Source: an uncultured bacterium (GTDB lineage Bacteria; Krumholzibacteriota; Krumholzibacteriia; Krumholzibacteriales; Krumholzibacteriaceae). Taken from it: a DNA stretch of 59,289 bases. Both the position numbers and the translations under genes were made by a program. The stretch covers positions 1 through 59,289 of the forward strand of contig CBDUYR010000013.1 in NCBI GenBank assembly GCA_965371515.1, written 5' to 3'. How positions within the stretch are numbered: the first letter of the stretch is position 1; the number at the start of each line of letters is the position of its first letter. Of this stretch, positions 23,181 to 39,101 are shown piece by piece. Below the pieces are notes generated by a model. It was not told the origin of the DNA and did no database searches. It worked only from the letters and a program-made list of their open reading frames with translations.

Positions 23181-23187
23181 GGCCGCA

Positions 23188-23216
23188 ATGCTAACAGCAA
23201 TCGGGGTTCTGCGCAA
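23188..23216 (-). promoter_or_regulatory. Putative sigma70 promoter of the PlpD-like gene
   Basis: TTGCGC-N17-TAGCAT. Confidence 0.45.
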
Positions 23217-23240: not shown

Positions 23241-23963
23241 TCAGATGAACTTTTCCCTGTTCTGGAGGTTATAGAGCCCGTACAGGATGGCGAGCACGCT
23301 GCCGACAGCGAGCATGATGCGGTTCTGGTAGATGATCCCGGACCATGCGGCAGCCGTCATCTGGTCGGGTACCTGGAATGGATTGAGGAAGAGGTTCCAC
23401 TTGCTCGTTGACAGTGCCTCGGCTCCTATCCAGAATGCCATGCCGATGACCACCATGATCACAGCCGTCCCGTTCCCGTTTCGAATTACAGTCGAGAACA
23501 TGAACGAGAGCGCCCCGAGGAAGAAGATCGGGAACATCAACTGGTAGACCATCTCGAATATGGGAACCTGTACGAATACGACTGAGCTCAGCACAGTCAG
23601 TACTACGAGCAGCGAGAAAGTAATAAGCCATATAAGCGCCATCCTCGACAGCCATACCTTGTACCTGTAGTCAGGTATACCGAAAAGGATCTCGATCATC
23701 CTCGAGTCGACGTCGTTCTGGATGCCGAAAGCGGTAGGGTAGAAGACGAGGAGGATGCCGGGGAACATCAGTATGTAGTATACATCGGGCACGCCCGGGT
23801 TCGAATCGGACGAGAAGAACGAGATGGCTCCTGCGGCGAGGAAGAATATAAAGGAGGCCAGCAGGAAGTAGATAAATTTGTTGGCGAAGATGATCTTCAG
23901 GTTGTACGAAGATATCTTCCTGGCCGAGTAGATCATGTTGCGAACCCTGTCAAACCTGCTCAT
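23241..23963 (-). CDS. ABC-2-type membrane permease (about 6 TM)
   Basis: GGAGG RBS, six hydrophobic segments and a D.DSRMIEILF.IP coupling-helix-like motif. Overlaps the upstream gene's stop. Confidence 0.7.
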   Translation of the reverse strand: MSRFDRVRNMIYSARKISSYNLKIIFANKFIYFLLASFIFFLAAGAISFFSSDSNPGVPDVYYILMFPGILLVFYPTAFGIQNDVDSRMIEILFGIPDYRYKVWLSRMALIWLITFSLLVVLTVLSSVVFVQVPIFEMVYQLMFPIFFLGALSFMFSTVIRNGNGTAVIMVVIGMAFWIGAEALSTSKWNLFLNPFQVPDQMTAAAWSGIIYQNRIMLAVGSVLAILYGLYNLQNREKFI

Positions 23964-26900
23964 CCGCGTCACCTCCCGCGGCTTCTGCCGCCGCTTTCCG
24001 CACGCCCAGCACATCGCTCCCCGAAGATCTCAGCAGCCATAGATAGGCGTCCTCGAGCGTCGGTCTCGCCTCATGCGCGTCGGGCACTGGTTTCACGGCG
24101 GCGAGGCACCTGACCTTTATATTCGCTCCATCGCGCATGTGATGGACGACGAGATGCTCCTTTCTTAACCTCTCGAAATCGGCCGGCTCGACGCTGAATG
24201 ACCAGACCTTACCGGCGGCTGTCGCGGTCATCTTCGTCGGTTCGTCGAGATAGAGCAGCTGTCCCCTGTTCAACACCGCGACCTTGTTGCACGAGCTGTA
24301 TATGTCCTCGATGATATGTGTAGAGAAGATGACGACCCTATCCCTGCTCAGTTCGACGAGGAGGTTTCGGAACCTGATCCGCTCGCGAGGGTCGAGCCCC
24401 GCGGTCGGCTCGTCGACGACGAGGATCCTCGGCAGGTGCAGGAGTATCTGCGCTATCCCGACCCGCTGCTTCATCCCGCCGGAAAATGCACCTATCTTCC
24501 TGTCGGCGTGCTCTTCGATATGCACCGCCTCGAGGACGTAATCGACCATATCGCGGCGTTTTTTCCTGTCGGCGAGACCCTTGAGGATCGCCTGGTAGTC
24601 GAGAAACTCCCTTGCCGTCAAGTTCTCGTAAGTCCCGAACTCCTGCGGCAGGTAGCCGATCAGCCCCTGAAGCTCCTCGCGCTTCTCCGCCGTGTCTATC
24701 CCGTTGATGTATACCTTGCCGTAGCTCTGGTCGAGGATGCCGCAGATAACACGCATAAGTGTCGTTTTGCCCGCGCCGTTCGGACCGAGCAGGCCGAACA
24801 TTCCGTTGCCGATCTCGAGCGACACGCGATCGAGCGCCTTGAAGGGCTGCTTGCGTTTTCCGATGACAGGAATCATGAGCACGAAGCGGTAGAGGGCGCG
24901 GCGGATGCCGGAAAGGCGTCCTTCGATCCTCGCGATGTTGATCTTGTCACGATGGAGCCTGCGCGAGGTGGAGAAGACAGCGATAGCTGTGAACCAGAGG
25001 ACCGCAATGAAGATCACCGCGGCGAGGTTGTCCCATTTCCTGTAGAAGACGGTGAGGTTGACGAGAGGGAAGAGCCATATGAATATCCTCGACAGCCCGC
25101 GCAGCAGGCGCCCCGCTAAGCCCGCAAGCCCTGACAGCCGCTCGCTCCAGCCGTCCCAGACGAACATCAGGAAGAAGAAGAGCAGGTGTGAGAGCACGAA
25201 GGCCCAGAAGAAGGAGGAGAGGTAGTAGTATGCGAAGTAGATAATGAAGCCGAGCACGGGGAGCTGCCAGAGCAGGTCTCCCGCGTCGCTGGTGCGTGTA
25301 TCTCCGCGACTCTCCCTGATACGCCCGCCCTTCTTCCATTCACGGACGAACTTCGACGGCTGGTCGTAGATCTTGACGAGGTTGCGCACCGTGATCGTAA
25401 TCGTGCTGTCACTGTCGATGACCTTTGCCGATGCCTTCCTCAGGCTCGCCAGGATGAACCAGGTCACCGCGGGGATGACCATTATAAGCGTTGCTGTCAG
25501 TGCCGATCTCCAGATCAGCGAATCGATCTTTTCCCAGACGAGCCATATACCGAGAACCGCTGCAAGTCCCTGAGCGAGTTTTATTCTCCAGTCGAGCCCT
25601 CTCAGCCAGCCGAGCGCCGAATCGAGCCCTGAATAAACGACAGGTATGAATACGAGCGTGAAGAGTGTGCTCACCGTCAGGCCGCCTATGACGGTAATGG
25701 CGAAGGGCGCACCGATCACTGAGACCTCTTCTTCCTTTCCCATGGCAAGCGGGATCATCGCTGCGATCGTCGTGATCGCTGTGATCAGGATCGGCCTGAC
25801 CCTCGCCTGCCCCGCCATCATAAGCGCTCTCGTTGAGCGGTAGCCCCTGCGCCTCAGTATCAGCGAGTAGTCGATCAGTATGATCCCGTTGTTGACGACG
25901 ACGCCGAGAAGTATGAGGAATCCGGTCAGCGTGTAGACATCTACGATCGAGGTGCCCGTTAAGATCAGGAGCCAGAGAGAACCTATGGCGGCAAGCGGGA
26001 TGGTGAACATCATCACTACAGGTGTCGTGAGTGATTCGAAGACCGATGCGAGGATCATGTAGATCAGGATGAATGCTGCCAGGATGAGGAACTTGAAATC
26101 GCCAATACCGCTGTCGTCCTCGACGATCTCCACCGCCATTCCCTGCGGGACGATGAGCCCGGCGATCAGATCTTCTATCTCTATCTCGGCTGCTTCGAGC
26201 AGCTTCCTCGAATCGTTGATCCCGTCGATAAAGGAATAGGTTATCGAGATCTGCTTCTCCTGGTTGATCCGCCTTATCCTCGTCATGCCGCGCGAGTAGA
26301 CCATGTCGCTGATTTCCTCGAGCTCGATGACCGCGCCGGAAGGCGACTGGAGGGACATCTCCCGCAGGTCGTCGGTATGGCGCTCCTCGACACCGGCGCT
26401 CCTGATGACGATCTCGTATTCGTCGGTCCCATCCTTGAACACCTGCCCGGTGGACCGCTCAGGCTGGAAGGAGCTAAGCTCCCTGCTGACCGACTGCAGG
26501 GTAAGGTCGTTCCAGGTGAGCAGCGGCATATCGAACATCAGCTGTATCTCGGGGCTGCCCGGGATGACGTCGTAATTTGCCGAGGCGGTCGATGCGAGGT
26601 CGTCAATGTAATCCGCGAGGTTGGAGGCGAATCGCGACATCGCTTCATAGTCGTTTCCCTTTACGACTATGCTTTTCTGCTGCGAACCGAATCCGAAGAA
26701 GCGTCCCATCGCGCCGCCCATCCCTCCGCCGCGTCTTCCCCGGTACCTTGTGCTGGATGTGGGCTCGTCGAAAGATATATCACCCGTTCTGATAGGGGCT
26801 ACCCGCTGCTTCGCGTCGGACTTGACCTGGCCGAGGTTGCGCCTGTCTATATCGCTGTACCCATCCTTCAGCTTTACCGTGATCCGCGCGTCCTCTTCGT

Positions 26901-28692
26901 AGATGTGGCTGATGATGTCCTGCTTCTCGGGGATCCCGTCGAGTCTCTCCTCGATGTCGCGGACGACGGCATCGGTCGATTCGAGTGTAGAGCCGCGCGG
27001 CATGACGAGGAAGATATCGAACGATCCCGTCTCCTCAATATTTGAAGAGCCTGCACTGAGGCCGACGCAGAGTATGATGCTGACGAAGAAGATGACGAGC
27101 GCCCCGACCGTTGTCCTCGCAGGGTATCTCATCCCCGTCTTGAGCAGGACGCGGTATATCTCCATCATCCTGCCGCCCGAGGACTGGACCGGGCTGTAGT
27201 CGGTTCTTTTCTCTTTAGAGAGGAAGTAATGGCTGACCATCGGGACGAGCAGAAGGGCGGCTGCGAGGGAGACGATCAGCGTAGAGACGATTGACACTCC
27301 GATGTGCTTTCCGAGACTCTGAACTATGAAATTCGAGGAGAAGACGAAGGGAAGGAAGACCGTTATCGTGGTCGCCGTCGCGGCAGTTATTGAGCGCCAG
27401 ACCTCGCTCACTCCCTGGATTACGGCTCTGTCGGCGCGGATACCCTTCGATGCGAGCCTGTATATGTTCTCCAGGACGACGACTCCGTTGTCGAGGAGCA
27501 TTCCGATCGCAAGTGCGATCCCGATGAGGGTGAGGGAGTTTATCGATATCCCCGCCGCGTAGAAGAAGTTCATCGCGATGTAAACCGAAATGGGAATCGA
27601 CAGGGCGATCACGAATACGAGCCGGAGGTTCCTGAGAAAGAACCACAGTATGACGATAGCGAGCAGTCCGCCGATGAGGGCGAGCCTGACAATGAGATTT
27701 ATATTGCCGCGTATCGACTCGGCGCCGTCGTACTGGACGACGATCTCCATCTCCTGGCCACGCATCTCGCGATTCAGTCGCTCGACCATCTCGAGGGCCC
27801 TGTCGGAGACCTCGATCATGTTGACCATCTGGTCCTTCATCAGGTTCATCGAGACTGTTTCCATGCCGTTTACACGGGTGATGTTCTCCTGCTTTTTCAC
27901 GCCGAAGTAGATCTCGGCGATGTCGCCTAGCAGGACGGGCCCGTCTGGATGCACGACGATCTTCTCGAGGTCGGCGATGTCGAGATATTCAGTCACAACA
28001 TTGACGAAGTATTTCCTGTCCCTTTCGACCGCCTGACCGACGAAGGTATTGGAAGCGCCGTTCTGAGAGATAAGAGCGGAGATCCTCGACGCTGTGAGCC
28101 CGTAGGCCTCGATAGCCTCGTCGTGGAGGACGATGTCGACCGACTTTTCCCGGCCGCCCGTAACGCTTACCTCGGCAATCCCCTCTATGCTCTCGAACTT
28201 CCTTCTGATCTTATCGTCTACTACCCGGCGGACGCGGTCGATGCCGCCCGTTCCCCGGATCTCGAGGTCCATCAGATTGTCAGAGATCCTCTGTGTGTCG
28301 AACTTGATGACCCTTACGAAGTAGTCCTCGGGGATCGAGGATCTGATCTCGGCGATCTTCTCCTCGAGTTTGAGGTAGGCGTACTTGATTTCTACGCCCT
28401 TCTTGTATTCGATCGTGATACTGCCCGACCCGCGGCCTATGTCTGATTCGATACGCTCGATCCCCTCGAGGGTGCCGGCCGCCTCCTCGATCGGGATAAT
28501 CGCCTCTTTCTCGACGCGGACCGGATCGGCGGGCCTCATTGACCGGACCATTACAAAGAGGTAGGGAAGCTCGATGTCTGGGATCAGCTCCACGGAGAGG
28601 CGCCTCTGCGATATGATTCCGAGCATCACAAGCCCGATGAAGAGCATGCTGATAAAAGTCTTGCGGCGGATTATGAAGTTGCCAGCGCTCAT
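23950..28692 (-). CDS. RND (AcrB-like) permease fused to an ABC ATPase domain
   Basis: The first ~1025 aa are RND (GMLLDNGVVVLENI, FESL..P, GVVVNNGI, RVRPILIT). The C-terminal NBD has GPNGAGKT, LPQ, FSGGMKQ, ILVVDEP and STH. It is one uninterrupted 1580-aa ORF. Confidence 0.92.
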   Translation of the reverse strand: MSAGNFIIRRKTFISMLFIGLVMLGIISQRRLSVELIPDIELPYLFVMVRSMRPADPVRVEKEAIIPIEEAAGTLEGIERIESDIGRGSGSITIEYKKGVEIKYAYLKLEEKIAEIRSSIPEDYFVRVIKFDTQRISDNLMDLEIRGTGGIDRVRRVVDDKIRRKFESIEGIAEVSVTGGREKSVDIVLHDEAIEAYGLTASRISALISQNGASNTFVGQAVERDRKYFVNVVTEYLDIADLEKIVVHPDGPVLLGDIAEIYFGVKKQENITRVNGMETVSMNLMKDQMVNMIEVSDRALEMVERLNREMRGQEMEIVVQYDGAESIRGNINLIVRLALIGGLLAIVILWFFLRNLRLVFVIALSIPISVYIAMNFFYAAGISINSLTLIGIALAIGMLLDNGVVVLENIYRLASKGIRADRAVIQGVSEVWRSITAATATTITVFLPFVFSSNFIVQSLGKHIGVSIVSTLIVSLAAALLLVPMVSHYFLSKEKRTDYSPVQSSGGRMMEIYRVLLKTGMRYPARTTVGALVIFFVSIILCVGLSAGSSNIEETGSFDIFLVMPRGSTLESTDAVVRDIEERLDGIPEKQDIISHIYEEDARITVKLKDGYSDIDRRNLGQVKSDAKQRVAPIRTGDISFDEPTSSTRYRGRRGGGMGGAMGRFFGFGSQQKSIVVKGNDYEAMSRFASNLADYIDDLASTASANYDVIPGSPEIQLMFDMPLLTWNDLTLQSVSRELSSFQPERSTGQVFKDGTDEYEIVIRSAGVEERHTDDLREMSLQSPSGAVIELEEISDMVYSRGMTRIRRINQEKQISITYSFIDGINDSRKLLEAAEIEIEDLIAGLIVPQGMAVEIVEDDSGIGDFKFLILAAFILIYMILASVFESLTTPVVMMFTIPLAAIGSLWLLILTGTSIVDVYTLTGFLILLGVVVNNGIILIDYSLILRRRGYRSTRALMMAGQARVRPILITAITTIAAMIPLAMGKEEEVSVIGAPFAITVIGGLTVSTLFTLVFIPVVYSGLDSALGWLRGLDWRIKLAQGLAAVLGIWLVWEKIDSLIWRSALTATLIMVIPAVTWFILASLRKASAKVIDSDSTITITVRNLVKIYDQPSKFVREWKKGGRIRESRGDTRTSDAGDLLWQLPVLGFIIYFAYYYLSSFFWAFVLSHLLFFFLMFVWDGWSERLSGLAGLAGRLLRGLSRIFIWLFPLVNLTVFYRKWDNLAAVIFIAVLWFTAIAVFSTSRRLHRDKINIARIEGRLSGIRRALYRFVLMIPVIGKRKQPFKALDRVSLEIGNGMFGLLGPNGAGKTTLMRVICGILDQSYGKVYINGIDTAEKREELQGLIGYLPQEFGTYENLTAREFLDYQAILKGLADRKKRRDMVDYVLEAVHIEEHADRKIGAFSGGMKQRVGIAQILLHLPRILVVDEPTAGLDPRERIRFRNLLVELSRDRVVIFSTHIIEDIYSSCNKVAVLNRGQLLYLDEPTKMTATAAGKVWSFSVEPADFERLRKEHLVVHHMRDGANIKVRCLAAVKPVPDAHEARPTLEDAYLWLLRSSGSDVLGVRKAAAEAAGGDADEQV

Positions 28693-31600
28693 CGGCTCCG
28701 ATCCAGGACGGAATAGACACAGGGTATTACTATGAGGGTGAGTATCGTCGACGTAACCAGTCCGCCGATAACCGCCAGGGCCATCGGAGAGCGGAGCGAG
28801 ACTCCCTCGCCGAATCCCAGGGTGAGGGGGAGGAGCGCGAGGATCGTCGTGGCGCTTGTCATCACGATAGGCCTGATCCTCATCCTGCCGGCGGCGACGA
28901 TAGCCTCCATCTTGGCCATGCCGTCGCGCTTCAGACGATTGATCGCATCGATCAGGATGATCGAATCGTTCACCGCTATGCCTACGAGCATGATCATCCC
29001 GATATAGGCCATGACGCTCAGGGGTCGGCCGAGCGCGAAGAAGATCAGTACGGCGCCTACCCCGGCCAGCGGAATCGTCAGAAGGATCGCGAACGGATGT
29101 ATGAGCGATTCGAACTGCGAGGCGAGGACCATGTATACCAGGATCACCGATAGTATCAGGGCAAATCGCAGGTCGCGGAATTCCTCACGCCTCTTGGCCT
29201 CCTCGCCTGCGATCGCGAGCCGGTAGTCGGGCGGAAGGTCTATCGCGGCGAGGGTGCCGTTTATCTCGCGTATCGCGTGGTCGAACGGCCTGCCCTCACG
29301 CTTGTGCGCGGTGACGATTGCGGCCCTCATCTGCCCGCGCCTGTTTATCTCGCGCGGCGCAGTTCCGATCTCGAGGGTCGCCAGTTCGTCGAGGCGGTAT
29401 TTCCTGCCGCCGGAATCGACGTAGATCCTGTCGAGGTCACCGAGTCCCACATCGGGAAGCATTACTGTGATGTCGGTCTTCTCTCCGCCGCGGTCCCATT
29501 CGCCCGCGTTCCGGCCGGTCAGTCTCGATTCGAGGGCTCCGGTCACCTCGCTGAGCTGTACCTGGAGCATACCCGCCCTGAGGCGGTCGACGACGACGCT
29601 GACCTCGGGACGACCGTGCTCGAGGGATGTCTCGACATTGTACAGGTCCTCGATTCCCGAGAGCTTCTCCCTGACCTGATCGGCAAGAAGGGTAAGAGTT
29701 TCGAGGTCGTCCCCCTTGATCTCGATCACCACGGGAGCAGAATCCGCCCCCAGGATGGAGCGAAGGGCCGTCTGGTCCTGCACGAGCCTTGATTCGACGC
29801 CCGGTATCGTCGCGAGCGCCGCTCCGAGGCCGGACATGATCTCTCCGGAGCTGCGGCTGTGCCCTTCAGCGAACTTGATCTTCACGACAGCGGTGTTTTC
29901 GTCCTGGAAGACGGAAGATTCGTCGCTGCCTATTCCGGTCACCGGCCCGGCCGTGCTGTACAGAGTCTCGATCGCGTCGCCGAAGATTCCCTTCATCAGC
30001 TCCTCGAGTCCTCTGACCGTTCCGTCGGTTCTTGTCAGGTCGGAGCCTTCGGGCAGAGTGAGGTATATCGAGTATTCATCGGCATCCGCCTCGGGTATGA
30101 ACTCGCTGCCCACTATGGGAAGGATGAGGACGGCCAGCGCCACGAGGGCGGCAGCCCCGATGATGACAGCCCAGCGTCTCTCGAGCGCCTTCGTCAGAAT
30201 GACGCCGTACCTTTCGAAGCGGACCGGCTGTGCAGCGGTCGCGGCCTTGCCGCTCCCGAGGAACCTGCTGGCCAGCATGGGGATTATCAGTATCGCGACT
30301 GCAAGGGAGGAGAGAAGGGCGAATGCGACGGTCCACGCCTGGTCCTTGAAGAGCTCCCCGGCCGCGCCGTGCAGGTAGACTATCGGGAGGAAAACGACGA
30401 TCGTAGTTATCGTCGAAGCCGTGATCGCGCCGCTGACCTGTGCCGTGCCGGTCGCGGCGGCCTCCCTGACGTTCATGCCCGATTCGATATTCCGGACTAT
30501 GTTCTCGACGACGACGATGGCGTTGTCGACGAGCATGCCGGCGCCGAGGGCGAGGCCTCCGAGCGTCATGATGTTGAGCGACAGTCCCTTGAAGTACATC
30601 AGGTTGAAGGTCGCTACGATCGAGACCGGTATCGATATGCTGATGATAGCAGTGGTCCCGATGCGCCTGAGAAAGACGAAGAGTATGAGTATTGCGAGGA
30701 ATATTCCGAAGAGTGCCGTCTGCCTCACCTCACCGATAGACGAGTTGATGAACTGTCCCTGGTCCTGGATGACGACGAGGTCATATCCGGGCAGCGCCTT
30801 CTCGATACGGTCGAGAGCTGCGATGAGATTATCGCTCGCCTCGACGGTATTGAACCGCATCTCCTTGTATATCGAGAGCCCGAGGCACCTCGTGCCGTTG
30901 ATCCTTACGATGTTCTCCGGATCCCTGTTGCTGAGCGAAACTTCGGCCACGTCGTGCAGGTATACGGGTGCTTTCTCCGTCGATCCGTCATCGGTCTGCA
31001 TGCGCTCCGCGGAGAGCTGCTGCCCCTCGCCGGGCTCCTTCCAGGCGAGGATGATCTGCCTGATATCCTCGATCGATTCCATGACGGAGACGCCCTTGAT
31101 CAGGTAAGAGATGCCCATCTCGGTGACTGTGCCGCCCGAAGCCTCGACGTTGTAGTTTCTTATCGTCGCAGCGATGTCGTCGACCGAGAGGCCGTAAGCT
31201 TCCAGTGTGTAGGAATCTGTCTGTACGATCACTTCCTTGGTCTCGCCTCCCGAGATTTCTACCCCGGCGATCCCATCGATCCTCACAAGTTCGTTTCGTA
31301 TGTAGTTCTCGGCGATCCTGCGCGGGACGTCCATATCGATAACGTCGGGATTGACGAGGGCAACCATCATGACTGGATCGGAGTTAGGATTGTGCTGTGT
31401 GATCGTGATCTCGAGGTCGTCGTATCTCTGCCCGAAGTCGGCCGCGGCCTTCTGGAGGTTGAGGAAGGCCTCGTCCATATCCATGTCCCAGCCGTACTCG
31501 ACTGTGATACGTGCAGCGCCGACCCTGATCATAGAGGAGACCCCGGTGATTCCCTTCTGTGTGAAGATCAGGTTCTCCATATTGTCGACGTACTGCTTTT

Positions 31601-31781
31601 CCATCTCCTCGGGAGGGCGTTCGCCCGCCTCTATCTCGATGAAGAGTCGGGGATTGTTCAGGTCGGGGAAGAGGTCTATTCCGAGGCGCTGGAACGAGAT
31701 CCAGCCGAGCAGGATCACGCCCAGGACGATCATTGTCACGGTAACGGGATGGTTAACGGAAAAGTCCGCTATCTTCCTCAT
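28689..31781 (-). CDS. RND efflux permease (AcrB/AcrD/AcrF family)
   Basis: GMLVDNAIVVVENI, QFESL.HP, GIAVND, RIRPIVMT and MALAVIGGL. TGATG overlap with the adaptor gene. Confidence 0.93.
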   Translation of the reverse strand: MRKIADFSVNHPVTVTMIVLGVILLGWISFQRLGIDLFPDLNNPRLFIEIEAGERPPEEMEKQYVDNMENLIFTQKGITGVSSMIRVGAARITVEYGWDMDMDEAFLNLQKAAADFGQRYDDLEITITQHNPNSDPVMMVALVNPDVIDMDVPRRIAENYIRNELVRIDGIAGVEISGGETKEVIVQTDSYTLEAYGLSVDDIAATIRNYNVEASGGTVTEMGISYLIKGVSVMESIEDIRQIILAWKEPGEGQQLSAERMQTDDGSTEKAPVYLHDVAEVSLSNRDPENIVRINGTRCLGLSIYKEMRFNTVEASDNLIAALDRIEKALPGYDLVVIQDQGQFINSSIGEVRQTALFGIFLAILILFVFLRRIGTTAIISISIPVSIVATFNLMYFKGLSLNIMTLGGLALGAGMLVDNAIVVVENIVRNIESGMNVREAAATGTAQVSGAITASTITTIVVFLPIVYLHGAAGELFKDQAWTVAFALLSSLAVAILIIPMLASRFLGSGKAATAAQPVRFERYGVILTKALERRWAVIIGAAALVALAVLILPIVGSEFIPEADADEYSIYLTLPEGSDLTRTDGTVRGLEELMKGIFGDAIETLYSTAGPVTGIGSDESSVFQDENTAVVKIKFAEGHSRSSGEIMSGLGAALATIPGVESRLVQDQTALRSILGADSAPVVIEIKGDDLETLTLLADQVREKLSGIEDLYNVETSLEHGRPEVSVVVDRLRAGMLQVQLSEVTGALESRLTGRNAGEWDRGGEKTDITVMLPDVGLGDLDRIYVDSGGRKYRLDELATLEIGTAPREINRRGQMRAAIVTAHKREGRPFDHAIREINGTLAAIDLPPDYRLAIAGEEAKRREEFRDLRFALILSVILVYMVLASQFESLIHPFAILLTIPLAGVGAVLIFFALGRPLSVMAYIGMIMLVGIAVNDSIILIDAINRLKRDGMAKMEAIVAAGRMRIRPIVMTSATTILALLPLTLGFGEGVSLRSPMALAVIGGLVTSTILTLIVIPCVYSVLDRSR

Positions 31782-32830
31782 CACCTCACGACCTTTACCT
31801 TCGACCTGTTCCTCAGCGTCTCGAAACCCCTGATTACGAGACGGTCATTGACCTCCAGGCCGTCGAGTACTTCGATCCAGCCGGGGTTCTCGAGGCCCGT
31901 CGTAATGATACGTTCCTGCGCGGCGCCTTTCTGGACGATGAAGACCGTCTTGCCGCGCTGCTTGACCTGGATCACGTCCTTGGGTATGACGATCGTCGAG
32001 TCGCTGCCTGCGACTACGATCTCGGCCTTGACGAACATGCCCGGACGCAGGATCAGATCGGGATTGCCGATCTCGATCATAGTCTTGAACGACCTCGAAG
32101 CAGGATCGAGTGCGGGGGAGACCTGCGTCACAACACCCGAAAGCGTGTCGTCGGGGAGGGTGTAATTCATTATACGTACGTTCTGGCCTGCGTCGGCGCG
32201 GCCGAGTTCCTTGCCGGGGAGGCTCACCTCGAGCTGGAGGCGGCTGTACTCTTTCACGCCGAGCAGTTCGGCTCCCTGTGCCACCTTGACCCCCCGCGTG
32301 TAGTAGGGGAGGCTCGTGATGACGCCTTTAAAGGGTGCGGTGATCTGAAGGTTCTCGAGGCGGAACTGGGCGTTCTCGTAGTCGTACTTCGAGTCGATGT
32401 AGGAGCGCTCGGCCTGGCTCAGCTCCAGTCGCGTGACTCCGCCTTTGTCGTAGAGAGATTTCTGCTGCTCGTATTCGAGACGCGCAGTCTCGAGGGTAAG
32501 TTTCTTCGCATCGATCCTGATGTTGTTTTCTTCCTCGGGATTCACCAGGTGGATTATCCTGGTGCCCTTTGCGACGATTTCGCCCAGAGCGAACGGTTTG
32601 CCCGTTGAGGGATTTTTAAGCAGGATGTACTCGCCGCCTGTCTCGGCGTTGATCGTAACCTCCTTGGAGGCCTTTACCGTACCGGTCGCTGTCACGAACT
32701 CCTCGATCGAGCCGGGAGCGATCTCCTCGACCGAAACGGGAACGGCGACCTCGACGTCTGTTCCCTCGTCCCCGCCTCCACAGGAAGCGAAAGTCAGCAG
32801 GGCGATTGATAACAGTGTGATTTTCTTCAC
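31781..32830 (-). CDS. RND periplasmic adaptor (membrane fusion protein), lipoprotein
   Basis: GTG start after AAGGAG, lipobox FASC, and motifs I.APF.G, LRPGMF, IP and GL...D.LV..G. Confidence 0.9.
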   Translation of the reverse strand: MKKITLLSIALLTFASCGGGDEGTDVEVAVPVSVEEIAPGSIEEFVTATGTVKASKEVTINAETGGEYILLKNPSTGKPFALGEIVAKGTRIIHLVNPEEENNIRIDAKKLTLETARLEYEQQKSLYDKGGVTRLELSQAERSYIDSKYDYENAQFRLENLQITAPFKGVITSLPYYTRGVKVAQGAELLGVKEYSRLQLEVSLPGKELGRADAGQNVRIMNYTLPDDTLSGVVTQVSPALDPASRSFKTMIEIGNPDLILRPGMFVKAEIVVAGSDSTIVIPKDVIQVKQRGKTVFIVQKGAAQERIITTGLENPGWIEVLDGLEVNDRLVIRGFETLRNRSKVKVVR

Positions 32831-32857
32831 TTCCCACTCCTTGCTCAATGATATATA

Positions 32858-34762
32858 TCAGTTCTTTGAATAATTCAGCGGAACGACCTTTGCGTAACCT
32901 ATCTGGGAAAGATCGAGCAGCCGCTGTTTTGTCGATGCTGCCTCTTCCGGCGTCCGATACTCTCCAACGTAGACTCTGTACCATGTCCGACCGTTTACTT
33001 CGGTCGCTAATATGGTAGCGGCGAAACCGTTCTTCTCCAGATAATCGCTCTCGCTGCCCGCCCGCCCGATTTCCGTGAAAGACGCTACATGAACCGTATA
33101 ATACGAGACCTCGTAAGCAGGAGCAGCCGTGGAGGGCTTCCCGACGGGAACCGGTCCGGCCACAATCGCTCTCTCCATACCGTCCGATTCGTATTCTGCG
33201 GGCGCCGCGTCGTCCTGCATACGGTCCTGATCGAATCCGGCGGCACTGCTCTCACCTTCCTCGATGCCAGAGGTTGATATCGTGATGACGGGGCGGTCGT
33301 TTTCGAAATCCCACAATGATTGTATCTTCAGGTCGAGCAGTTGCAGCCTGTAGTTGATAAGGTCATTGATCTCGCTTAGTCTCGCGTTGGAGAGGGACTG
33401 TCGGTAATCGCCAAGCAGCTGACTCGTCAGGTCCCCGTTCTGGTATTTCTCGAGGTTGATCTCGTACGTCTTCTCCGCGCTCTCGACACGTCTGCTGGCG
33501 AGCTCGATCTGGCGGACGAGGTTGTCGAGCGCGCGGCACGACTCGCGGATATCCATAGTTATTTCGTATCTGTCTTCCTCGAGAGTAAGTTTCTGGCTCT
33601 CGAGACTGATCTCGCTGGCGAGTATCGTATTCTTTTTCTGTCCCCAGTCCCAGATCGGTATGTCGAATGAAATGCTGACAAGCTGCTCATCCGTCCGCTT
33701 CTCGTAGATGTTGTTAAAATCAGGATTTGTCCCTGACGATCCCCAGGAGAGATGCAGATCGCCCCTGAATTCGTTGACCGTTCCAGCGCGGACTATTGCG
33801 TTGTAAGCGTTGGCGATTGTGATCTCCTGCTGGCGGAGTTCCATCCTCGTTTCGAGCCCGTGCCTGACGGCGAATTCCATGTTGATGCCGACTGGATTGA
33901 ATCCGATGTCGGTATCGATGTCGATATCGTCGTCGAGGGGGAGGCCGATGAGGTATTTGAAGCGGTCGAAGGCGTTGGCGAGCGAGACGGTCGTGTTGTT
34001 ATAGTTCGATTCGCTCGCAAGCATATCGGTCTCGGCCTGGGTGAGGTCGTCGAGCTTCCCGATTCCCGCATCGTACTTGTTTTTCATGATCCGGTGATTC
34101 TCGCGGTCGGACTCCATTGCGTCACGGTTGATCTCCAGCCTCATCTTGTCTGCGTAAAGATAGTAGAACTCCCTCATCACCCTTCTCTCGATGTTCAGCT
34201 TCGTGATCACGAAGCTGAGCTCACTGCTTTCGAAATCGAGCTCGAGCTCGCTGAGGTCCATCTTCATCCTGTTGTATGTGAACAGGGGCTGGTCGAACTG
34301 GAGATAGAGTGCATTACGGTAGTTCTGAGTCGATTCGTCGTTGACCTCGCTGTAGGTGTCGTGCCAGGAGAGGCGGTCGTTGAGCGAGAGCACGCCGTCG
34401 GTCCACTTGATCGGCTGCCTGATCGAGATCTGTCCGGCTATATCCTTTGATTCGTACGTGTACCAGGTGGAGAAGAACTCGTCGAACCTGTTGGTGTTCT
34501 GATACGAGATCGGTCCGAGGGTCAACCCGAACTGCGTCTTCAGACTCGCCTCCTCTGCCCTGAGCCTTGCCTCGCTCGCGTCCAGGCGGAATTTCGTATG
34601 CCTGATATCGGGGCTGTTCTCCATCGCGATGGAAAGGGCGTCGTTGAGCGACAGTATGTGCTGCGCCGACACACCGGACGGCACGGCGGCCAGCAGCAGA
34701 GGGGCAAGCAGTACTGCGGCGAACCTCCTCGCCGCTCCGGAGATCCTCGATTCGGATACCAT
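32858..34762 (-). CDS. TolC-family outer membrane factor fused to a C-terminal SPOR domain
   Basis: Signal peptide and TolC motifs LSL.DAL..A.ENSP, QPLF, IPIWDWG and Y..G. After an acidic linker come YTVHVASF...A......L...GF and WYRVYVG.Y....EA. Confidence 0.85.
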   Translation of the reverse strand: MVSESRISGAARRFAAVLLAPLLLAAVPSGVSAQHILSLNDALSIAMENSPDIRHTKFRLDASEARLRAEEASLKTQFGLTLGPISYQNTNRFDEFFSTWYTYESKDIAGQISIRQPIKWTDGVLSLNDRLSWHDTYSEVNDESTQNYRNALYLQFDQPLFTYNRMKMDLSELELDFESSELSFVITKLNIERRVMREFYYLYADKMRLEINRDAMESDRENHRIMKNKYDAGIGKLDDLTQAETDMLASESNYNNTTVSLANAFDRFKYLIGLPLDDDIDIDTDIGFNPVGINMEFAVRHGLETRMELRQQEITIANAYNAIVRAGTVNEFRGDLHLSWGSSGTNPDFNNIYEKRTDEQLVSISFDIPIWDWGQKKNTILASEISLESQKLTLEEDRYEITMDIRESCRALDNLVRQIELASRRVESAEKTYEINLEKYQNGDLTSQLLGDYRQSLSNARLSEINDLINYRLQLLDLKIQSLWDFENDRPVITISTSGIEEGESSAAGFDQDRMQDDAAPAEYESDGMERAIVAGPVPVGKPSTAAPAYEVSYYTVHVASFTEIGRAGSESDYLEKNGFAATILATEVNGRTWYRVYVGEYRTPEEAASTKQRLLDLSQIGYAKVVPLNYSKN

Positions 34763-34784: not shown

Positions 34785-37700
34785 CTAGCGCCCGACCCAC
34801 TTGACCGCGTCGGCGATCACGAACCGTGCCTCTGACTCGTTGGTAATCTCGATCTTTGCCTCACCCTGAGAGATGTAGTACGAGCCGAGGTAGTTCCATC
34901 CGTCTTCGGCGCTGTTGAGATCGAGTTCGGTCTCTTCGACGCCGTCATCGTGATATATGAGAAAGTGGACCTTTCCGTAATCGGCATCATGGCCTCCGCC
35001 TCTGTGCCTTCGCCAGGGCGAGACGATCCTGCTCGCGTGATAGTAGACGTCGAAGTGCCCGCTCTTCTCGAGTGTGGCCGTGAACGCGGCTGTATGGTCG
35101 CCGCTGCCGCTCGCTATGAAGTGGGCCGAGCGGATCTGGGCGCCGTAGAATTTCGTGTCGATCGTCGGCTGCCACCTGCTCGACTCGCTGCCCCCGTCCC
35201 AGAAACGCATCCCGACATATTTCACATCTTTCTCGCTCGCGCCGCGTGGGATGAGCCTTTTAAGCAGGCTCTTCGATGTGCCCGACGACGATGAGAATCC
35301 GGGATCCTCGTTGTCTACGACCGTCTCTCCCTTGACAGTGAGCTCTACCGGTTTGTCCAGGACCCTTTCGCCGTCAAAAGGTGTGATTTTCTTTTTCTCT
35401 TCAAGTTCCTCGGGAAGATCGATATCCATGAGCACCGGCAGGTTGCGGGAGACCAGTGTGTTGACCTGGACGGATGACGGCTGGAATCCCAGGACGAAAC
35501 CGAGTTCCCTCGTCTCGCCGGCCTTGACCGGAACGTACCGGCTGTAATCCTTGCCCATCGTCATCGTGGCGGTCATCATCCGTCTCATGCGTCCCCCGCC
35601 GCCGCGCATGTTTACGTCCATCTGCTTGAAAGTAAATACAATAAGCCCGTCGGTATCCTCGTTATTGGTCACACTTAGACGGACCTGGAACTTCTCGCGT
35701 TCTTCGTCGATGAACTTGAATATCTCCACCGGGGACATCGTAAATCCGGGGACGGAGATGCCGTCATACCAGCCCTCCGTGATCGCTGAAAGGTCGATGT
35801 TGAACTCATCATTCAGGGAGGAAACAAAGACATCACCGGGCACATTGTCGTACTCGTATTCCTCGAACAGTCCCTTGATAATCTTGTCGAGTTCGTCCCG
35901 GCTCGCGGCGCTCTCCAGCATCCTCAGGAGGAAACTTCCCTTAGATTTGAGGGCGTAGTGAGACATCTTGCGGTATTCGGGGTCGAGGATGAGGTCACGA
36001 AGACTCATCTCGGCGAGCTTGAGGTTGACCCTTTCATCGAGCGTCATCCCCCAGCGCATCCTGCTCCAGCTGAACGTGTTGTCCTCGAGTCTCGACGCGT
36101 ACCATGACTCGAGGGCCATCCCGAGCCAGGGCATCTCCTTCGAATCGATCCCGCCTCGGAAAGCGAGCATGTTGGGGAATACGTTATACGAAGGCGACCT
36201 CTGGAACGGATCATCAGAGTCCCAGTCCGATCTTCCGAATCGCCCGGTAAGTGTCGCGTTCACGAATACCGCGAACATCCCCGCCTGGTTCTCCATCTCC
36301 GAGATATCCTCGTTGCTCCGTTCCTGCTGTCGCTTGGTCCTTCGCTTCATCCTTCTGAAATCAGCGCCACGAATGGTGATGCCCCGTTCGGGGATGAAGA
36401 CCATCTCCGGCTGGACCGTCTCCTGGTAGACCGACCAGGCGTGATAGAACGCCGAGTAATGGACCGGGACCTCGACTATAGAGAATCTCGGGAAGGGATA
36501 TTCGAGGTTGAGATTATTTTCATATGTCTGCCTGAGGTCCCTGATCATAGCCTCGAGAGTGTCCCCGACCTCGGTCATGTACTCCGACCAGTAATCGTTC
36601 CCCGGGCCGAAATAGATATTGTATTCGACCGAGTCGACGACAGCTGTATGTCTCTCGAACCCGGCTATCGTCAGGGAGATCGCAGGGAGGCGGTTTTCGG
36701 GCCTGAAGCTGAATTTTCCCGGGGAGTCATTCGATGACGCACCCTGTGAGACTGCCGTCAGGCCGGGAGTGGTTGTGACATCGAGTGAGAAATCTACGAA
36801 ATCGTGCCTGCGCTCGAGCGGCCTCGAGGGGATGAAGCCGGGCCCGGCGGCGGGGTACCACATCGTCTCCGGGGTGAGCAGGACATATCCGGGATGGATA
36901 TACGAGTATCTCCGCCCCATAACGAAGAACATGAGCCTGTTCATGCCGGTGAGTGTCCCTACATCTATATCGGTATAGAGAGCATCTTCGTTAATAATCC
37001 CTCTCCACTGTATACTGAACGAGTCCTCAGCGCCGGCGGCGAGCGGGCTGCCGGGAACGACCATCAGTATATGCTCATCCCGTTCGTACTTCAGCGTTCC
37101 TGATGCTCCCTCTACTTCACGGACGGTGAGTCCCGGATTGAGGTTGAATATATATGATGAAAGGGGGGCGCCGGTCTCGTTCCGCACTGTTATCTCCGCC
37201 GTGGCGTCTATCAGTCCGCCTTCGTGTTTGAGATCGATGTGGCAGGAGAGGGGCGTCGCGACATCTCTCGCGGAGGCCGCTTCAGATGCTGCAAGTATCC
37301 TCTCGCGCTGGCGAGCCATATTCCCGTCCCTGCCTGTGTAGACTACGATAAGCACTATGGCGAGAGCCGCGCAGGCGAATCCGGCGATCCGCGCAAATCC
37401 CGTCATCACCCTCGATTGCGGGAGCCTGCGTATCATGACGATCGTGAGGGAAATGAACGAAAGGCCGAAGAGAAGATAGATCAAACGCTGCACGAGCATA
37501 TGCGTGATGTCGGCGAAGCCTGTGAACTGCGAATAGACCAGAGGGACGTTGAAGGCGATATAGTCGAAGACGTTGTGAATCCTTGGCCCGAGATAGAAGA
37601 GTGTCATCCCGATATATCCCAGCAGGACGATGAATGTCACAGCCTGGTTACGGATCGTGACCATCATCAGGAAAGCGAATCCCAGGATGAAGATCAGGGT

Positions 37701-38168
37701 CGGGATGCTGATAACGACGGGATATATGAGGTAGGCGATTCCGGCGAATGTCGTATCTGCGAAGAAGACATTGAAGACCAGGCCTATCAGCAGGATCACG
37801 ATATTGAGGAGGAGGAACATCGTCATGATCCCGACCGTCTTGCCGAGGACGTAATCGGTGTTCGTCATCGAACGCATGTATACGACCTCGGTCGTATCGA
37901 GCTTCTTGTCCCTCTTGAGGAAATCTGAGGCGAGGAAGACTGCGATGATCGCCTGCGCCACATTGAGAAAGAGGATGTTCATGTAAGGGATCGTTGTCGG
38001 TACGCCCTGTAAGGCCCACGGTGCGTGTGTGACGTTGGAGAGGGATACGAAATCGAAGAAACCGATGATCGCGACGGAGAGTATGGAGAATATCCGGAAG
38101 AACCAGCTCCTCCACAGTGTCTTCGCCTCGAACCTGGCCACTGTGAGGATATTGTAGATTGATATCAT
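34785..38168 (-). CDS. ABC-2 permease with a large periplasmic M1-aminopeptidase-like region and a C-terminal golvesin/xanthan-lyase CBD-like domain
   Basis: About 7 N-terminal TM (ARFE.K.L.RSWF, RD...DT.EV.Y.R.M.N..Y..GK). Then F.LNPGL, WYP and YPF.R...VEVP, and a C-terminal VVDNED.GF...GWNYLGSY...VIADAVKW. Confidence 0.75.
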   Translation of the reverse strand: MISIYNILTVARFEAKTLWRSWFFRIFSILSVAIIGFFDFVSLSNVTHAPWALQGVPTTIPYMNILFLNVAQAIIAVFLASDFLKRDKKLDTTEVVYMRSMTNTDYVLGKTVGIMTMFLLLNIVILLIGLVFNVFFADTTFAGIAYLIYPVVISIPTLIFILGFAFLMMVTIRNQAVTFIVLLGYIGMTLFYLGPRIHNVFDYIAFNVPLVYSQFTGFADITHMLVQRLIYLLFGLSFISLTIVMIRRLPQSRVMTGFARIAGFACAALAIVLIVVYTGRDGNMARQRERILAASEAASARDVATPLSCHIDLKHEGGLIDATAEITVRNETGAPLSSYIFNLNPGLTVREVEGASGTLKYERDEHILMVVPGSPLAAGAEDSFSIQWRGIINEDALYTDIDVGTLTGMNRLMFFVMGRRYSYIHPGYVLLTPETMWYPAAGPGFIPSRPLERRHDFVDFSLDVTTTPGLTAVSQGASSNDSPGKFSFRPENRLPAISLTIAGFERHTAVVDSVEYNIYFGPGNDYWSEYMTEVGDTLEAMIRDLRQTYENNLNLEYPFPRFSIVEVPVHYSAFYHAWSVYQETVQPEMVFIPERGITIRGADFRRMKRRTKRQQERSNEDISEMENQAGMFAVFVNATLTGRFGRSDWDSDDPFQRSPSYNVFPNMLAFRGGIDSKEMPWLGMALESWYASRLEDNTFSWSRMRWGMTLDERVNLKLAEMSLRDLILDPEYRKMSHYALKSKGSFLLRMLESAASRDELDKIIKGLFEEYEYDNVPGDVFVSSLNDEFNIDLSAITEGWYDGISVPGFTMSPVEIFKFIDEEREKFQVRLSVTNNEDTDGLIVFTFKQMDVNMRGGGGRMRRMMTATMTMGKDYSRYVPVKAGETRELGFVLGFQPSSVQVNTLVSRNLPVLMDIDLPEELEEKKKITPFDGERVLDKPVELTVKGETVVDNEDPGFSSSSGTSKSLLKRLIPRGASEKDVKYVGMRFWDGGSESSRWQPTIDTKFYGAQIRSAHFIASGSGDHTAAFTATLEKSGHFDVYYHASRIVSPWRRHRGGGHDADYGKVHFLIYHDDGVEETELDLNSAEDGWNYLGSYYISQGEAKIEITNESEARFVIADAVKWVGR

Positions 38169-38219: not shown

Positions 38220-39101
38220 TCAGTTCTCGGACTGGTTCTCCATGAAATAGACGTAAGCGTGCTCGAGATTCGGCTCTATTTCTTCACCGGGCCATCTGCC
38301 CGTATCGTCGGCCACGACGTGGACCTCCCAGCCGTCGTCTGCGGGGATGGTCGATATCACCGGGAAGGTCGTCTTTATCTCCTCGAGTTCGCTGTCGAGC
38401 GCGCGTATTTTCCACGACCGCCCGCGGGCCTTCTCGATAAGCTCGTCGGGGGAGCCGCGGAAAACGACGCGGCCGCGGTCGAGCAACGCCATGTTATGGC
38501 AGGTGCTCGATATGTCGCCGACGATATGAGTCGAGAGGATGATGGCGATATCCTTCTGGCCCATGTCTGCGAGCAGGTTTCTGAATCTGATCCGCTCCTC
38601 GGGATCGAGGCCGGTCGTCGGTTCGTCGACGACTATGATCTTCGGCTCTCCGATCAGAGCCTGGGCGATCCCCAGCCTGCGTTTCATTCCCCCGGAGAGC
38701 TTGTTGGCGAGCCGGTCGCGCACGTCGTAGAGGCCGACCTGTTCAAGCATCTCGCCGACGGCCTTTGTCCGCTTCTTCGTTTCCCTCAGGCCGGCGAGGC
38801 GCGTCACGTAATCGAGGAATTCCCATGTAGTGAGTTTGGAGAAGAACCTGAACTCCTGCGGAAGATATCCGAGCATCGACCTGATCTCGCGCCGGTTCTT
38901 CTGCAGGTCGAGATCGTTCACCCTGACGCTGCCGCCCGTCGGCTTCATCAGCGTGACGAGGATCCTCATCAGGGTCGTCTTTCCCGCGCCGTTCGGCCCG
39001 AGCAGGCCGAACATCCCGCTGCCTATATCGAGGTCCACTCCTGTGAGGGCTGCCGTGCCGCCCTTGTATGTCATGCTCAATCCTTTGACCGATATGTTCA
39101 T
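38220..39101 (-). CDS. ABC transporter ATP-binding protein (ABC-2/DrrA-like)
   Basis: GPNGAGKT, LSGGMK, IIVVDEP and STH. Confidence 0.95.
   Translation of the reverse strand: MNISVKGLSMTYKGGTAALTGVDLDIGSGMFGLLGPNGAGKTTLMRILVTLMKPTGGSVRVNDLDLQKNRREIRSMLGYLPQEFRFFSKLTTWEFLDYVTRLAGLRETKKRTKAVGEMLEQVGLYDVRDRLANKLSGGMKRRLGIAQALIGEPKIIVVDEPTTGLDPEERIRFRNLLADMGQKDIAIILSTHIVGDISSTCHNMALLDRGRVVFRGSPDELIEKARGRSWKIRALDSELEEIKTTFPVISTIPADDGWEVHVVADDTGRWPGEEIEPNLEHAYVYFMENQSEN

Follow-up and report, generated by a model that had tools for sequence, protein, structure and literature searches.

The window, by which we mean the whole 59,289-nucleotide stretch of DNA from an uncultured bacterium of the Krumholzibacteriaceae, carries seven co-oriented genes in the order NBD1, TMD1, TolC-type channel, adaptor, RND2, RND-ABC fusion and TMD2. 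These genes and all of the features described below lie on the minus strand. The fusion, gene 6 of the series (23950-28692), is a single frame of 1580 aa. Its RND permease domain (aa 5-1021; 25630..28680) is full-length and matches Pfam ACR_tran (PF00873; AcrB/AcrD/AcrF family) over positions 3-1018 of 1021, with an E-value of 2.3e-154. Two predicted membrane helices follow, and behind them an ABC nucleotide-binding domain (NBD) in two pieces. Strand 1 (aa 1098-1109; 25366..25401), with the A-loop residue Tyr1109 at its end, is separated from the NBD core, which begins at strand 2 (aa 1284-1492; 24217..24843) and contains all five ATPase motifs, by an insert of 176 aa (aa 1110-1285; 24838..25365) where NBD1 has 5. 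A small C-terminal domain, common to NBD1, lies behind the NBD (aa 1496-1556; 24025..24207).

The partner genes provide the context of this protein. The free NBD1 (38220..39101; 293 aa) is an uninterrupted sister paralogue of the fused NBD, aligning to it from aa 1286 with 42% identity over 276 aa, while its first 17 residues are left unaligned. TMD1 (34785..38168; 1127 aa), which bears a large M1-peptidase-like and Golvesin_C extension, and the small TMD2 (23241..24014; likely start Met19) are permeases that we take to be ABC-2-like, on account of their helix pattern and a coupling-helix-like motif, conserved in TMD2, set against the features of that family; neither the membrane part of TMD1 nor TMD2 has a match in Pfam or NCBIfam. 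Domain matches identify the TolC-type outer membrane factor, here with a SPOR tail (32858..34762), the periplasmic adaptor or MFP (31781..32848), and RND2, a second, unfused RND permease of 1031 aa (28689..31784). Promoter and terminator scans gave results at or below chance. In a tree of 23 fused NBDs and 22 NBD1s with a narrow outgroup, 19 other NBDs from this genome only, the fused NBDs and the NBD1s are sister clades (support 99/95), which suggests that an NBD was duplicated and that insertion and fusion followed.

Distribution of the locus and the RND permeases

Residues 1030-1300 of the fusion match 622 homologous proteins with lengths of 869-2765 aa. A pattern search of 185,579 species genomes found 271 loci, and the following observations concern the 80 of these that were listed. 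They come from Krumholzibacteriota, KSB1, Calditrichaceae, Melioribacteraceae, Latescibacterota, Chlorobiota and many Bacteroidota, including cultured members of the genera Draconibacterium, Marinifilum and Maribellus. The insert lies in one frame with RND and NBD sequence in all 80 listed genome loci of the 271. RND2 precedes the fusion in 73 of the 80, the other seven being cut at the contig start; TMD2 is the next gene in 75, and the full upstream gene order is visible within the 10-kb flank in 57. TMD1 was found in 32 of 32 genomes tested, and NBD1 stands immediately upstream of TMD1 in 30 of 30 loci listed. Among 80 metagenome loci, the insert is fused to an RND in 71 and cut by the contig end in eight, and one (L176) has a closed frame with no RND match; TMD2 is the next gene in 76. 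The operon NBD1-TMD1-OMF-MFP-RND2-fusion-TMD2 recurs in KSB1, Krumholzibacteriota and Bacteroidota, the latter including Bacteroides thetaiotaomicron, whose recorded orthologue of 1569 aa is 49% identical and has the same layout.

P0126 and the P0127 cluster (four members of 483 aa, which begin some 12 aa ahead of strand 1) looked like a free form of the split NBD. They are candidates at most, as the two closest loci (L112 and L113, 87% identical) are fused to an RND.

In AcrB, the relay consists of two Asp residues in TM4 and a Lys in TM10. The fused RND has a single TM4 Asp (DN in 132/143) and NN in TM10 (134/143), and it keeps the Arg and Thr of TM11; the AcrB-type Asp-Asp-Lys relay is absent. 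These observations bear on the idea that the insert is a connecting rod, through which NBD motion drives or times the RND cycle via the six helices and makes the protein an ATP-assisted RND pump. Its favorable points are that, in the 80 genome and 80 metagenome loci, the insert was never found without an RND in an intact locus and that the fused RND lacks the AcrB-type relay. However, RND2 shows the same DN (110/119) and ND/NN motifs, and the reduced relay is therefore a family trait rather than a result of the fusion. The two ABC permeases and the second NBD of the operon also account for the motor, and the fused NBD belongs with ABC-2 exporter ATPases, its best family matches being GldA and DrrA, below cut-off. 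We consequently regard the connecting rod as improbable.

Strand 1 and the interrupted nucleotide-binding domain

The preliminary description placed the first NBD strand, ITVRNLVKIY, about 175 residues ahead of the second. Translation and motif positions give the same coordinates and spacing: ITVRNLVKIY occupies aa 1100-1109 (nt 25395-25366) and the strand-2 motif starts at aa 1285 (nt 24840), with 175 residues between the two. The Tyr-to-'AL' spacing is 176 in the fusion and 164-210 over 121 rows of the family alignment, compared with 5 in the free NBD1.

An 11-column profile, built solely from strand 1 of 31 NBD1 orthologues, selected aa 1099-1109 as the top window of the whole 1580-aa protein with 14.4 bits, against 5.8 for the runner-up and a background over the fusion windows with a mean of -27.6 and a standard deviation of 7.9. 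The equivalent window was selected in 114 of 120 homologues, and in the other six an RND membrane segment scored slightly higher. Strand 1 is highly conserved across the 120 homologues: I1100 is kept in 99%, V1106 in 98%, and K1107 and Y1109 in 100%. Tyr1109 is thus the invariant A-loop aromatic (120/120; motif as defined in PMC3971661), and the insert adjoins it, which bears out the earlier proposal that the insertion lies next to the adenine-stacking residue.

The Pfam ABC transporter family match covers fusion residues 1288-1431. Walker A (1303), the Q-loop (1347), the signature (1403), Walker B with its Glu (1423) and the H-loop (1456) are each intact in 112 of 112 full-length homologues, with FSGGM or YSGGM as the signature, and because of this the split NBD is likely to be an active ATPase. 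Among 31 distant cluster representatives with a Walker A and enough sequence upstream, the strand-1 motif was recognized by pattern in 30, 182-222 residues ahead of the Walker A region, and by eye in the last; none of the 31 has an insert of intermediate length.

Structure prediction points in the same direction. An AlphaFold model of aa 860-1580, made from an alignment of 121 sequences (mean pLDDT 78.4, pTM 0.68), has a strand at aa 1100-1109 (model residues E241-250) with a pLDDT of about 90. After it come one helix (1114-1128), a group of four (1137-1248), another single helix (1261-1273) and then strand 2 (1284-1294). The proposed packing of the segment into the NBD sheet is reproduced: the model puts aa 1098-1109 as NBD strand 1, and the superposition of canonical NBDs starts with their own residues 1-4 on model residue 237-241 (aa 1096-1100), as judged from aligned ranges and counts rather than coordinates. 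MJ0796 superposes with 219 aligned residues (rmsd 2.4, Z 25.4), and since strand 2 to the end of the range comprises 203 model residues, at least 16 of its pairs precede strand 2; for 4rvc, 238 of 240 residues are aligned (rmsd 2.9, Z 24.4). In a second model, predicted without the NBD core, the strand-1 residues are coil (pLDDT 57-64), and therefore the segment becomes a strand only together with the NBD.

In a simple analysis of coevolution (291 rows, effective depth 135-148), N1104-Y1324 came fourth among the strongest pairs of the region. Of the 20 highest-ranking long-range pairs that involve strand 1, five match the sheet registers expected, which hold 118 of 3010 pairs (nominal P 8e-4, for bands chosen from general knowledge of NBD topology after a first look at the ranking), and 0 of 63 shifted control bands reached five. 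The other 15 pairs lie outside the bands and most top pairs are noise; the signal is thin, and it is not independent of the model because both draw on the same family.

It could be argued that aa 1100-1109 is a chance look-alike, and that the NBD begins near aa 1270 with a replacement strand, the helices being a linker before an ordinary domain. BLAST and Pfam do begin the NBD at aa 1286-1288, and some NCBIfam models reach aa 1272-1279. Nevertheless, the profile scan, the invariance of K1107 and Y1109, the model, the superposition and the coevolution all indicate aa 1098-1109, and aa 1261-1273 is helical in both models, which leaves the look-alike extremely improbable. The interruption of the NBD after strand 1 is confirmed and well supported.

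The six-helix membrane unit

Strand 1 is flanked by predicted membrane helices on both sides, each identified from the model together with hydropathy. Helix a (aa 1035-1055; 25528..25590; model helix H176-196), which is weak in this protein, and helix b (aa 1059-1084; 25441..25518; H200-225) form a hairpin ahead of it, and the insert contains TM1 (aa 1140-1158; 25219..25275), TM2 (aa 1161-1180; 25153..25212), TM3 (aa 1200-1218; 25039..25095) and TM4 (aa 1223-1241; 24970..25026). The insert opens with a conserved amphipathic helix after strand 1 (aa 1114-1128; 25309..25353; H255-269), at the position of the Wzt gate helix and with a hydrophobic moment of 0.63 over aa 1112-1122, and a basic amphipathic helix lies before strand 2 (aa 1261-1273; 24874..24912; H402-414; moment 0.61). 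Overall, the insert is predicted to be helical, with pLDDT mostly 70-90, and hydrophobic.

The four hydrophobic segments of the insert and the two before strand 1 (about aa 1036-1055 and 1060-1084 by hydropathy), as given in the preliminary description, are present, but three of the six are of moderate hydrophobicity. Taking the six segments from first to last, the best 17-residue Kyte-Doolittle mean is at least 1.5 in 84, 119, 85, 109, 104 and 121 of 121 rows; helix a reaches just 1.22 in this protein, and insert helices 1 and 3 are moderate. As controls, four RND helices pass in 121 of 121 rows each and an NBD helix in 0 of 121. With a crude segment counter, 30 distant 50%-cluster representatives gave four segments in 16, five in one, three in six and two in seven.

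The predicted topology agrees with the earlier suggestion of a membrane-embedded insert whose even helix count (2 + 4) keeps both NBD pieces cytoplasmic. Predicted inner loops contain on average 15.2, 5.2 and 11.2 Lys/Arg (121 rows), whereas the predicted outer loops are short (6-9 aa) and charge-poor, with 0.3-1.3 Lys/Arg on average. RND helix 12 ends inside in the established RND topology; two plus four crossings from that point therefore place strand 1 and the NBD core, by prediction, in the cytoplasm. The position of hairpin, bundle and NBD relative to each other is uncertain in the two models (pTM 0.68 and 0.54). The six-helix unit could not be placed from its coevolution with RND helices 8-12, where the noise was too high, and nothing but noise, including a single hub column, came from inter-protein coevolution of the fusion tail with TMD2 over 138 paired loci.

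No relative of the six-helix unit was recognized by fold, atlas or profile search. Foldseek gave no match at E <= 0.001 and the ESM Atlas no usable match; in a fold comparison of the unit (model pTM 0.54), the best VIA Z was 8.7 (rmsd 9.8), with generic bundles of which none was outstanding. The profiles of the unit and the operon permeases show no similarity, with hhalign probabilities of 0.8% and 0.4%. This result weighs against the reading in which the RND carries a fused half ABC transporter with the six helices as its membrane domain, an arrangement whose size six predicted helices and an NBD would match. The operon already provides its two NBDs with two permeases, the NBD itself encloses four of the six helices, and we know of no ABC membrane domain with helices placed in this way. 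A half transporter is thus very unlikely.

Regarding the origin of the insert, we looked for a separate donor family. However, 97 of 100 short matches are at least 90% covered by a full-length fusion, and for 117 of 141 library-wide matches the fusion profile covers 80% or more, the other 24 being short, or apparently frameshifted or chimeric; a donor was indicated by no short or library-wide match. In hhalign, the hairpin that precedes strand 1 shows a resemblance to the first hairpin of the insert (score 21.7, probability 60%; 7.7 for the reversed control and at most 13.5 in 60 column shuffles), which is a hint that the insert may have begun as a duplication of the preceding hairpin.

Conservation of the insert among homologues, on which the proposed membrane anchor partly depended, is complete in that every relative examined keeps it: no shortened or insert-less fusion occurs among 120 homologues, 160 loci and 31 distant representatives reaching far enough upstream. 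The stems of the insert are more conserved (mean modal identity 0.72 and 0.69) than its helices (0.63, 0.56). R1117, E1118, W1119 and G1122 are found in 97-99% of 120 homologues, and G1258, P1275, G1278 and F1284 are invariant. A conserved buried charge is missing from the insert helices, which average 0.02-0.9 charged residues, and the linker between helices 2 and 3 varies from 13 to 36 aa.

These features can be read in two ways. The main rival of a working role for the insert is that the six helices are a rigid scaffold, which fixes the position and stoichiometry of the ABC module beside the RND trimer and does no work in the cycle. Helices that are apolar and variable in sequence and linker length would suit a scaffold, as would the coevolving pairs inside the unit (1137-1181, 1154-1171, 1155-1212, 1175-1208 and 1048-1069), which fit a compact bundle, and the insertion at the same site in CFTR, which is largely dispensable (PMC2217481). 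On the other hand, helices a and b already tether the NBD, so that interrupting it is needless for anchoring; the stems are highly conserved, and a fusion with a short insert or none is missing from the relatives examined. A purely structural scaffold is, in our judgment, unlikely.

Possible function and comparison with known systems

The reading that we tentatively prefer, with confidence slightly short of even, is that the insert serves as a gate arm embedded in the membrane, which ATP-driven closure of the NBD sets in motion, within an ABC exporter that is physically tied to an RND pump. A working arm is favored over a scaffold because the NBD has its anchor in hairpin a/b in any case and conservation is higher in the stems than in the helices. 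The protein has strand 1 together with the full set of catalytic motifs, and all are conserved. The strand is predicted to lie in the NBD sheet, flanked by the two-helix hairpin on its N-terminal side and by the four-helix insert on its C-terminal side, and both pieces of the NBD are predicted to be cytoplasmic. Judging from the operon and the tree, the fused NBD would pair with NBD1, and both would power TMD1 and TMD2; because a single operon contains two NBDs and two permeases, we infer an ABC exporter that is a heterotetramer and has one of its NBDs suspended from the RND; this 2+2 exporter would be fixed to an RND heterotrimer, the adaptor and the TolC channel. By analogy with Wzt, the loop between strands 1 and 2 would face the membrane at the permease interface and shift with ATP binding, and the insert would thereby open and shut a lateral site at which a membrane-bound substrate enters or is handed over, with the ABC cycle synchronized with RND loading.

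Under this analogy, the insert may couple nucleotide binding to a membrane domain, as the preliminary description had supposed, and the domain served is most likely the ABC-2 permease pair of the operon rather than the RND. Against a gate arm, variable helices without conserved buried charge suit a structural role equally well. A bolder interpretation, which we consider possible but rather doubtful, is that ABC and RND are one machine and a new class of envelope exporter, in which the NBD crosses the membrane four times and the bundle, as the moving part, passes substrate from the ABC permeases to the RND or drives the cycle of the RND with ATP.

The usual teaching is that ABC nucleotide-binding domains form compact, soluble cassettes. 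In the fusion, the cassette is interrupted by a predicted membrane bundle and joined to an RND pump, in an operon whose distribution takes in uncultured phyla of sediments as well as B. thetaiotaomicron, a model organism of the gut. If a gate arm is at work, the gate-helix principle would extend from a 20-residue loop to a membrane domain, and the operon offers a single genetically reachable system for asking whether and how ATP-driven and RND-type export are coupled. In the open literature on RND-ABC fusions, NBD-inserted TM helices and Bacteroides RND and ABC systems, no description of the fusion or the split was found; the accessible portions of PMC8277102, PMC10102347 and PMC10434189 contain no description of either. 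Our findings therefore point to a conserved, real and apparently undescribed variant of the ABC cassette. The insertion site has precedents, short and soluble, in Wzt and CFTR; neither a membrane-spanning insert at this site nor the RND fusion turned up in the literature searched.

Several known systems share part of this arrangement. MdtABC-TolC combines two RND paralogues, one adaptor and one outer membrane factor, with no ABC module. The operon resembles it in the two-RND set-up and differs by its ABC module and by the TM4 and TM10 residues (DN, NN). The best sequence and structure matches of the fused NBD with its C-terminal domain are the ABC-2 exporter ATPases of the GldA, DrrA, NosF and TM_1403 type: the best NCBIfam matches of the NBD are GldA (TIGR03522) and DrrA (TIGR01188), with scores below cut-off, and the best structure matches are 4yer (Z 26.6) and 7qba (Z 24.4). 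Unlike the fused NBD, these ATPases are uninterrupted soluble subunits.

In CFTR NBD1, a regulatory insertion (residues 404-435) separates strands 1 and 2 of the antiparallel sheet, and ATP dependence remains intact when it is severed or largely lost (PMC2217481). The two proteins share the site, and CFTR illustrates that an NBD tolerates a break there; an insert at this site therefore need not be a working part, which counts against a gate arm. Only the position is common to both, however, since the CFTR insertion is a mobile, soluble, phosphorylated and largely dispensable segment of 32 residues, whereas the insert of the fusion is more than five times longer, hydrophobic and always kept.

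The nearest functional parallel comes from the type V polysaccharide ABC exporters, whose ATPases Wzt and TarH have a gate helix. In Wzt, it is an extended connection between strands 1 and 2 that lies at the water-lipid interface against the permease pair and moves about 8 A upon ATP binding (PMC6379404). The helix is inserted right behind the A-loop aromatic (PMC13018209), and it changes conformation and is essential in mycobacteria (PMC13018209, PMC13649706); gate-helix residues A18-S40 were deleted in the M. abscessus study. Wzt/TarH and the fusion have in common an insertion between strands 1 and 2 after the A-loop aromatic, which starts with an amphipathic helix and reaches the membrane. 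Aquifex Wzt (7k2t) aligns to our model over 236 residues in the chain range 1-241 (Z 21.2, rmsd 4.5), so that the model contains an equivalent for most of the Wzt gate loop; the first part of the insert probably runs along the gate-helix route in the predicted structure. The two also differ: the gate insertion of Wzt/TarH comprises about 20 soluble residues, compared with 164-210 residues and four predicted membrane helices in the fusions, and Wzt is a free NBD in a Wzm-Wzt homodimer pair, whereas the fused NBD is tied to an RND and has heterologous partners. Nor is Wzt the nearest structural match, at Z 21.2 against a best value of 26.6. The fused NBD would work like the Wzt/TarH gate-helix ATPases and is not a member of that group, because of its 176-aa hydrophobic insert, its fusion to an RND, its two different permease genes and its nearer structural matches elsewhere.

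Loop and hairpins of the split ATPase domain

In two other ABC ATPases encoded in the same genome (G000:C8:53782-54783 and G000:C1:75840-76901), strand 1 appears to be followed by a short additional stretch before strand 2 begins, which is in line with a strand 1/strand 2 loop that tolerates changes in length. Within the fusion itself, the hairpin that precedes strand 1 (window 25441-25590, minus strand) and the first hairpin of the insert (25153-25275, minus strand) have in common a Tyr...Ser/Asp...Trp turn pattern, and this likeness possibly reflects an internal duplication.

Atypical records related to the fusion

Proteins P0126 and P0127 (and P0314) are 483 aa long and start just ahead of NBD strand 1. 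Four members form one cluster, on contigs of up to 19.6 kb. Such proteins could be either split NBDs that exist on their own or fusions that have been broken; their near relatives are fused. In P0129, the first half of TMD2 is joined to the tail of the fusion, with the junction at the hairpin before strand 1. This protein is a single record on a 2.7-kb contig, its tail is 94% identical to that of a normal fusion, and it is probably an assembly chimera. At the locus L117:164-6311, the gene immediately upstream of the fusion is NBD1-like, with no TMD1, channel, adaptor or RND2 in between.

Additional domains and the neighbouring gene

The permease TMD1 (window 34785-38168, minus strand) has one more hydrophobic segment, the seventh, as well as a large extension that ends in a Golvesin_C domain. 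The extension matches M1 peptidases weakly (E 1.2e-5, below the cut-off); despite this match, the HExxH motif is absent from the TMD1 sequence, and the extension may be a domain that binds substrate but is inactive as an enzyme. Elsewhere in genomes G001, G002, G003 and G024 there are second TMD1-like genes, which are more distant (26-35% identity).

At its C terminus, the TolC-type protein (window 32858-34762, minus strand) has a SPOR domain (aa 553-615), a tail seemingly missing in most of its orthologues, which are mostly about 500 aa long. Following TMD2, a patatin-POTRA-Omp85 gene (20985-23216, minus strand) is present in the window, and likewise in the five closest loci whose sequence extends to this point. 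In L173 and similar loci a related gene adjoins the operon on the opposite strand.
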